A stretch of DNA of 64,000 bases from Escherichia coli (GTDB lineage Bacteria; Pseudomonadota; Gammaproteobacteria; Enterobacterales; Enterobacteriaceae), in assembly GCF_013122565.1 (NCBI RefSeq), contig NZ_CP053258.1; one strand, written 5' to 3'. Numbering within the stretch: position 1 is the stretch's first letter; every line of letters begins with the position of its first letter. A program made the position numbers and the translations under genes. The notes under the pieces are model-generated. The model was not told the DNA's origin. It did no database searches and saw only the letters and a list, made by a program, of their open reading frames with translations. Shown piece by piece: positions 3,896-4,270 of this stretch.

Positions 3896-4243
3896 GAAGG
3901 GCCGCGAAAGCGGCCCTTCAGATTATTGGCAAAGTGCGCGTTGTTCATGTCGGATGCGGCGTGAACGCCTTATCCGACCTACAAGATCGTGCAAATTCAA
4001 TAGATTGCAGGAAGTATGTTGGCCTGATAAGCGTAGCGCATCAGGCAGTTTTGCCTTTGCCATCAGTCTGAAGGGCCGCGAAAGCGGCCCTTCAGATTAT
4101 TAGCAAAGTGCGCGTTGTTCATGTCGGATGCGGCGTGAACGCCTTATCCGACCTACAAGATCTTGCAAATTCAATAGATTGCAGGAAGTATGTAGGCCTG
4201 ATAAGCGTAGCGCATCAGGCAGTTTTGCCTTTGCCATCACTCT
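3896..4243. repeat. tandem duplication of a 174-bp BIME unit (hairpin plus two REP-type palindromes per unit)
   Basis: copy A 3896-4069 and copy B 4070-4243 differ at 4 positions; each has gaagggccgcgaaagcggcccttc, REP gtcggatgcggcgtgaacgccttatccgacctac and REP ggcctgataagcgtagcgcatcaggc. Confidence 0.85.
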
Positions 4244-4245
4244 CA

Positions 4246-4270
4246 AGGGCCGCAAATGCGGTCCTTTTTT
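4246..4270 (+). terminator. hairpin plus T-run (third, degenerate copy of the BIME hairpin)
   Basis: aagggccgcaaatgcggtcc followed by ttttttatt. Confidence 0.5.

Follow-up and report, generated by a model that had tools for sequence, protein, structure and literature searches.

Two nearly identical 174-bp units stand side by side downstream of tktA in the stretch of DNA analyzed here, and the locus raises the question of what kind of element they are, how the second copy arose, and what the pair may mean for the genes on either side. The stretch, called the window below, comprises 64,000 nucleotides of Escherichia coli (RefSeq assembly GCF_013122565.1, contig NZ_CP053258.1). An earlier note, made from the sequence alone, had described a tandem duplication with four differences in which each unit carries a GC-rich hairpin together with a pair of oppositely oriented REP palindromes (a BIME); direct comparison of the copies, inverted repeats, folds, and REP patterns bear this description out. 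The features referred to in the text are as follows.

1885-3876, + strand: tktA, transketolase (ORF 1855-3876; TIGR00232, 1098 bits)
3896-3919, + strand: hairpin H1, GAAGGGCCGC-GAAA-GCGGCCCTTC (inverted repeat, 100% complementary)
3919-4069, + strand: BIME-1 copy 1, 151 bp (full-length family homology)
3949-3982, + strand: z-type REP of copy 1, GTCGGATGCGGCGTGAACGCCTTATCCGAC plus CTAC (inverted repeat, REP pattern)
3983-4017, + strand: L linker of copy 1, about 35 nt, with an IHF-consensus site, ATTCAATAGATTG, at 3995-4007 (Rfam ES036, pattern)
4018-4046, - strand: y-type REP of copy 1, inverted (inverted repeat, REP pattern)
4070-4093, + strand: hairpin H2, same sequence as H1 (inverted repeat)
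4093-4243, + strand: BIME-1 copy 2 (97.4% identity to copy 1)
4123-4156, + strand: z REP of copy 2, with its CTAC foot (REP pattern)
4169-4181, + strand: IHF-like site of copy 2 (pattern)
4192-4220, - strand: y REP of copy 2, inverted, GTAG intact (REP pattern)
4245-4272, + strand: hairpin H3, AAGGGCCGCAAATGCGGTCCTT, at 4245-4266 plus T-run at 4267-4272 (predicted intrinsic terminator)
4269-5177, - strand: prohibitin/SPFH-family gene, 302 aa, convergent to tktA (ORF; weak HflC/HflK matches)

Gene context of the array

The array is the 3' untranslated region of tktA. The start of tktA was set at 1885, the orthologous E. coli CDS being 1992 bp long; loiP lies upstream of the gene and cmtB/cmtA downstream, as at the tktA locus of K-12. 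The convergent gene is annotated in E. coli records as "prohibitin family protein," and its stop codon (4269-4271) overlaps the T-run at 4267-4272. Several open reading frames in the array (59, 46, 49, 51, and 50 aa, and one of 138 aa at 4108-4524 that begins in copy 2 and enters the antisense strand of the prohibitin gene) were treated as spurious.

Over pepP-ubiH, the window is 97 to 98.5% identical to E. coli, with no complete genome at 99%, and the closest strain at the tktA locus is E. coli TB06052 (approximately 97.5%). The DNA of E. whittamii is only 92 to 95% identical to the window; the prohibitin protein is 100% identical in its best segment. K-12-type E. coli (JM83) has no prohibitin-family gene and carries another tktA terminator, AAAAAGGTCGCTTCGGCGACCTTTTTT. 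E. coli HS-02 retains the window-type hairpin beside a frameshifted remnant of the prohibitin-family gene. In Enterobacter sp. kpr-6, three to four tandem units of approximately 70 to 75 bp (…CCCTCACCCTARCCCTCTCCCAYRGGGAGAG…GATCGAGTGCGGATTTGTTTTTTC…), unrelated to BIMEs, lie just beyond the prohibitin homologue.

Each unit joins a hairpin to a complete 151-bp element

Direct comparison of 3896-4069 with 4070-4243 aligns 174 with 174 bases, with no indels and exactly four mismatches (3928 G/A, 3989 G/T, 4020 T/A, and 4066 G/C, unit 1/unit 2), a true tandem duplication. Tandem Repeats Finder reports 3896-4266 with a period of 174, 2.1 copies, 95% matches, and a score of 686, and a second repeat search agrees. 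The register is absent at 3895 and upstream and extends only about 23 bases into a third copy. Each period of 174 is made up of a 22- to 24-bp hairpin and a complete 151-bp BIME-1 element, which starts at CAGATT and ends at CAGTCT(G), and within the element the L linker, which contains an IHF-consensus site, follows a z-type REP and precedes an inverted y-type REP.

H1 has a perfect 10-bp GC-rich stem (RNA fold, -22.7 kcal/mol; z, -5.9), and H2 with the flanking BIME ends forms a 15-bp stem (-30.1 kcal/mol). The z REP of copy 1 folds at -19.2 kcal/mol and H3 at -15.4 kcal/mol; the 400-nt tktA 3' region as a whole folds very strongly (-192 kcal/mol; z, -12.5). In both z REPs (3949-3978 and 4123-4152) the outer pair is T-A (GTCGGAT...ATCCGAC) instead of the C-G of K-12 copies (GCCGGAT...ATCCGGC), a compensatory double change that preserves the hairpin. 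At 3995 and again at 4169, ATTCAATAGATTG fits the IHF consensus WATCAANNNNTTR at 12 of 13 positions. The T at 4020 changes the GTAG foot of the copy 1 y REP to GTTG. With the REP patterns used, the sole REP-like match in the 64-kb window outside the array is at 47991-48013 on the - strand (GCCTGATGCGACG...CTTATCAGGCCTAC).

The units belong to the BIME-1 family

An element counts as BIME-1 if it combines z1 and y REPs with a long L linker and has an IHF site (PMC3333891, PMC2817692). Both units have two inverse REPs with GTAG/CTAC feet, apart from the mutated y foot of copy 1, and in both a long L linker carries the IHF-consensus site; by the published definition they classify as BIME-1 (RIB/RIP), with full-length homology to K-12 elements that have the L linker as indirect support for a putative z1 subtype. 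The family homology is full length: in every E. coli genome, the 151-bp core is matched from 1 to 151 at other loci, at a median of 15 places. In K-12 or K-12-like sequences, the elements at fepA-entD (89.5%), dppA-dppB (90%), and dacB-cgtA (85%) begin and end at these same points.

The inverted REPs, the CTAC/GTAG feet, the linker of about 35 nt with its IHF-consensus site, and the position at the 3' end of a transcription unit are all as in known BIME-1/RIB/RIP elements. The array differs from these in being tandem, twice here and three times in Escherichia sp. MOD1-EC7003, and in having a period that also holds a non-BIME terminator hairpin. BIME-1 has been described as single-copy (PMC3333891); most alleles of this locus do have one copy, and the two tandem copies in the window depart slightly from that rule. 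Near-identical tandem copies in strain-variable number at a 3'-UTR site recall instead the BIME-2 or atypical BIME arrays such as REP325 in yjdM-yjdN (PMC3333891). In those arrays, however, z2 and y REPs are joined by short S linkers that lack an IHF site, strong interaction with gyrase is characteristic (PMC2817692, PMC1475751), and the period consists of BIME motifs only, whereas that of the tktA array adds a hairpin. This class is marked by z2 and y REPs around a short S linker, flanking s, l, or r motifs, and a strong gyrase site; the linker found here is instead a 35-nt one of the L type with an IHF-consensus site. REPINs mobilized by RAYT likewise consist of two inverted REPs able to fold into one long hairpin, and E. 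coli K-12 has a RayT gene; the event here differs in that it is most likely a local, homology-driven tandem duplication and not a transposition. The array is a known kind of element and an ordinary strain-variable repeat: a new instance, not a new type.

Copy number varies at the predicted tktA terminator

Comparison of repeat number at the 3' end of tktA across strains, which the earlier note had proposed, revealed alleles with zero, one, two, and three copies. We derived copy number from the lengths of spans obtained with a flank-only query. Joined BLAST pieces give 100% coverage whatever the copy number and were hence not used for allele counts, and a 32-nt query across the unit-to-unit junction cannot seed in one-copy alleles. 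Of 5,426 complete E. coli genomes, 1,830 have the tktA/prohibitin-family locus according to the flank-only query; among 60 evenly spaced genomes of the 1,830, approximately 15 were zero-copy, approximately 39 one-copy, and 5 two-copy. The junction query gave an exact match in 120 of the 5,426, a single time in each. A deletion of 12 to 13 bp at the linker/y-REP junction is present in 18 of the approximately 39 one-copy alleles (about 30% of the sampled E. coli) and removes GGAAGTATGTAG, which comprises the end of the L linker and the GTAG of the y REP.

The alleles differ in a regular way. With zero copies (E. coli MLI109 and ETEC4079 and two Pseudocitrobacter species), the sequence reads tktA stop, 19 nt, GAAGGGCCGCGAAAGCGGCCCTT, TTTTTT. 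With one copy (E. coli TB06052, LF82-type strains, and 266917_2, as well as E. albertii and E. whittamii), the order, as read in TB06052, 266917_2, E. albertii, and E. whittamii, is hairpin, BIME-1, hairpin, T-run. E. coli M12 has two copies, like the window, and Escherichia sp. MOD1-EC7003 has three, with a period of 175 and 94% matches. The right flanks of zero-, one-, and two-copy alleles show only 1 to 3 differences in 350 bp, which indicates that copy number changes faster than the flanks diverge.

Common to these alleles is a predicted terminator. H3 has the GC-rich stem-loop followed by a T/U run that defines an intrinsic terminator, whereas H1 and H2 precede CAGATT without a T-run. A terminator consensus scan of both strands called H3 (9 pairs, then TTTTATTT) as the sole terminator-like site within the array; a second match, at 3796-3809 on the + strand, falls inside the tktA coding sequence. 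H3 and the unit hairpin are identical at 19 of 22 positions (none expected by chance in 100 shuffles), and the form of H3 with an AAAT/AAAC loop occupies the same position in E. albertii and E. whittamii. The unit hairpin is a copy of this tktA terminator stem. A dispersed repeat was considered for this hairpin and ruled out: in the window it occurs only at the tktA locus, and a hairpin-containing query finds one or two places per genome, at that locus. The third hairpin had been taken for a degenerate third copy at 4246-4270. Its standing as the only terminator-like site in the array is upheld, and its limits need a small correction (hairpin at 4245-4266, T-run at 4267-4272), but the zero- and one-copy alleles show it to be the ancestral terminator hairpin, which closes the array and bounds the element in all one-copy alleles, and not a degenerate product of the duplication.

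Origin of the second copy

Our preferred reading, which we hold at a probability of roughly 80%, is that a two-copy tandem BIME-1 array lies inside the tktA intrinsic terminator and arose by slippage or unequal exchange between the hairpin repeats. On this reading, the ancestral site had one hairpin and then a T-run; in Escherichia, stem and T-run are separated by a 151-bp BIME-1 that has the 22-bp hairpin on each side (H-BIME-H'). These direct hairpin repeats, and later the 174-bp units themselves, would misalign in replication or recombination, and slipped-strand mispairing or unequal sister or allelic exchange would then yield zero, one, two, or three copies according to lineage. The period itself places the end points of the duplication in H and H', because 174 bp is the 151-bp BIME plus the locus-specific hairpin. 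The first step would likely have been replication slippage, because repeats shorter than about 30 bp fall below the threshold for RecA (PMC2884548); once two units exist, their 174-bp homology could drive further change. Published work takes flanking repeats of less than 30 bp to imply slippage and counts 12 to 16% of the variable segments of E. coli as PU loci (PMC2884548); strains also differ in how many BIMEs stand in tandem (PMC3333891). Relative to TB06052, the window differs at 10 of 350 sites in the left flank and at 1 of 350 in the right, and it is possible that an inter-allelic unequal crossover produced the array in the window.

The similarity of the two copies had been taken as a sign of recent duplication or ongoing gene conversion. 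Recency is unsafe: unit 1 of the window differs at 2 sites from the single unit of E. coli 266917_2 and at 4 from window unit 2, and since single-copy E. coli units are as close to each window copy as the copies are to one another, 98% identity is no proof of it. Three of the 4 sites at which the units mismatch have states that also occur in other alleles, and the T at 4020 is private to copy 1 among the 14 units compared. The conversion claim keeps some footing in one private base common to both window units, G4003, in the unspecified part of the IHF site, which is the only sign in the window of lineage-specific origin or conversion. In MOD1-EC7003, several lineage-specific indels are common to all three units. 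Separate amplifications, or conversion within each lineage, would be the simplest reading of such lineage-private shared features.

The duplication could instead have been made by RayT/TnpA-REP, which, according to the BIME amplification model, would cleave iREP or linker C|T sites and transfer strands there. TnpA-REP cleaves and recombines BIMEs in vitro and has been proposed as a BIME amplifier, strains differ in their number of tandem BIMEs (PMC3333891), and the GTAG/CTAC tetranucleotides are intact in copy 2. An event at REP sites, though, would give a period of at most 151 bp without a hairpin, and the period here contains a 22- to 24-bp non-REP, locus-specific hairpin, with both end points outside the BIME. 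Moreover, GTAG is needed for TnpA-REP binding (PMC3333891), and the y REP of copy 1 has GTTG. A tblastn search found no RayT homologue in the 64-kb window (best E value, 0.36), although the enzyme acts in trans and a gene elsewhere could supply it. We therefore regard this route as very unlikely, and the suggestion that the array is a REP-transposase substrate does not extend to the duplication, which, with a non-REP hairpin in its period, does not look driven by a REP transposase.

Another way to reach the same architecture is two independent insertions of BIME-1 into the same terminator hairpin, each duplicating the hairpin as its target site. Direct target repeats do abut BIME-1 ends, over 22 bp here and over 5 bp (GTATG) at dppA-dppB; at dacB-cgtA a BIME-1 lies directly 3' of a hairpin, and a second insertion at H' would give the arrangement seen in the window. 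What this does not account for is the sequence of the copies, which are 97 to 98% identical and have locus-specific variants in common (the T-A outer pair of the z REP), while BIME-1s elsewhere are only 85 to 90% identical. That difference makes any donor other than the neighboring copy very unlikely, and we consider a second insertion highly improbable.

The units also match a small-RNA model, and one could read them as duplicated sRNA genes (ES036/CssrF, or nucleoid RNAs resembling naRNA4) and the array as a functional sRNA locus. Rfam ES036/CssrF (RF02751) scores 47.0 bits at 3983-4025 and 50.3 bits at 4157-4199, both above the gathering score of 37.6, and CssrF has been seen by Northern blotting in Shigella, in the dacB/yhbZ spacer (PMC3071730). 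The K-12 dacB-cgtA spacer, which is the CssrF type locus, is itself a BIME-1, however, and the 43-nt ES036 model coincides with the L linker; the hits therefore reflect repeat homology, the model being in effect the BIME-1 L linker, and would mark repeat copies rather than sRNA genes. Nor did the promoter scan and fold indicate an independent transcription unit with a stable structure, as expected of ES036 (CssrF): the ES036 segment folds at -7.1 kcal/mol with a z of -0.47, no better than shuffled sequence, and no promoter-like site was found in 3700-4500 on either strand. The REP325-derived naRNA4 model reaches 49.8 bits at best, short of the 59.5 bits set for gathering, and according to a 2026 preprint REP325/naRNA4 does not compact the nucleoid. 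A functional sRNA locus is, on this evidence, most improbable.

Elsewhere in the window, the - strand holds a tandem pair of Sib antitoxin RNA genes (RF00113) at 34000-34150 and 34393-34543 (133.8 and 132.8 bits), 649 nt away from ssrS, which encodes 6S RNA (RF00013, 139.8 bits; 35192-35375, - strand), on its lower-coordinate side.

That the duplication is an assembly artifact, a repeat mis-expanded as tandem repeats of this size can be from short reads, is barely credible, as the copies differ at 4 positions, the two-copy architecture recurs in 120 complete E. coli genomes, and another Escherichia species has three copies.

A possible insertion footprint of BIME-1

Slippage between hairpin repeats, the reading that we prefer for the second copy, starts from a BIME-1 already flanked by such repeats, and the flanks offer a lead on how the element itself may arrive. 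At tktA, the 22-bp hairpin repeats abut the family-defined ends of BIME-1 exactly, and the empty site carries one copy, a pattern like the target duplication of a MITE. Three other BIME-1 loci gave mixed results. At dppA-dppB, approximately 24 sites were filled and approximately 15 empty among 40 evenly sampled E. coli genomes; filled sites have the 5-bp GTATG exactly at both ends of the element, and empty sites have GTATG once. The dacB-cgtA element was present in approximately 14 and absent from approximately 25 of 40 sampled E. coli genomes (the site is empty in O157:H7), and where present it stands immediately 3' of a terminator hairpin, CCCCGGC-ACATG-GCCGGGG, in place of the T-run; its flanks show no clean repeat. 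At fepA-entD, the site was filled in all sampled genomes, and there is no flanking repeat.

Many targets of the Yersinia element YPAL reportedly overlap terminators, according to the original YPAL paper. The likeness to BIME-1 drawn here is one of architecture, and putative target duplication by BIME-1 is itself drawn from only two loci, tkt and dppA-dppB. YPAL/RU-2 elements are palindromic, GC-rich, and about 150 to 170 bp long; they insert shortly after the ends of genes, in or beside terminator-like targets with dyad symmetry, and have target duplications of 3 to 26 bp (PMC2229807). We found no published target-site duplication for a BIME in the literature, only this YPAL analogy. By that analogy, we tentatively suggest that the 3' foot of terminator-type hairpins might be where BIME-1s integrate, each time duplicating a target stretch of variable length (22 bp at tktA, 5 bp at dppA-dppB), an idea that we think is more doubtful than probable. 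If true, it would explain how a "single-copy" BIME-1 turned into a copy-number-variable array at tktA, and the mechanism by which REP/BIME elements integrate in vivo could be approached through sequence.

Predicted effects on tktA and its neighbor

Transcripts of tktA would read through H1, both BIME-1s, and H2, which all lack a U-tract, and would end at the U-run of H3. The REPs and H hairpins in the 3' UTR would serve as barriers to 3' exonucleases or as partial terminators; such roles, the stabilization of 3' UTRs and partial termination, have been argued for REPs in general and for those of convergent gene pairs in particular (bioRxiv 10.64898/2026.03.23.713779). The two L linkers would offer two putative IHF sites, 174 bp apart. 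Arrays of this kind had been said to bind gyrase and IHF. Binding of IHF would suit the BIME-1 class, with which it is associated, but strong gyrase binding and cleavage are properties of BIME-2 (PMC2817692, PMC1475751), and that half of the statement probably does not carry over. The array is most likely repeat DNA that is close to neutral; for tktA and the prohibitin-family gene opposite it, a modest tuning effect would be the upper limit.

BIMEs, their IHF sites, and the variation of their copy number between strains have long been known, and alone this array carries little weight. The locus provides a natural series of zero, one, two, and three copies of one BIME-1 in one 3' UTR. Such an allele series could be used to measure the effect of a REP doublet on mRNA 3' ends, on mRNA stability, and on convergent transcription, and a genome-wide survey of the exact repeats that flank polymorphic BIME-1 sites could test the mode of insertion.
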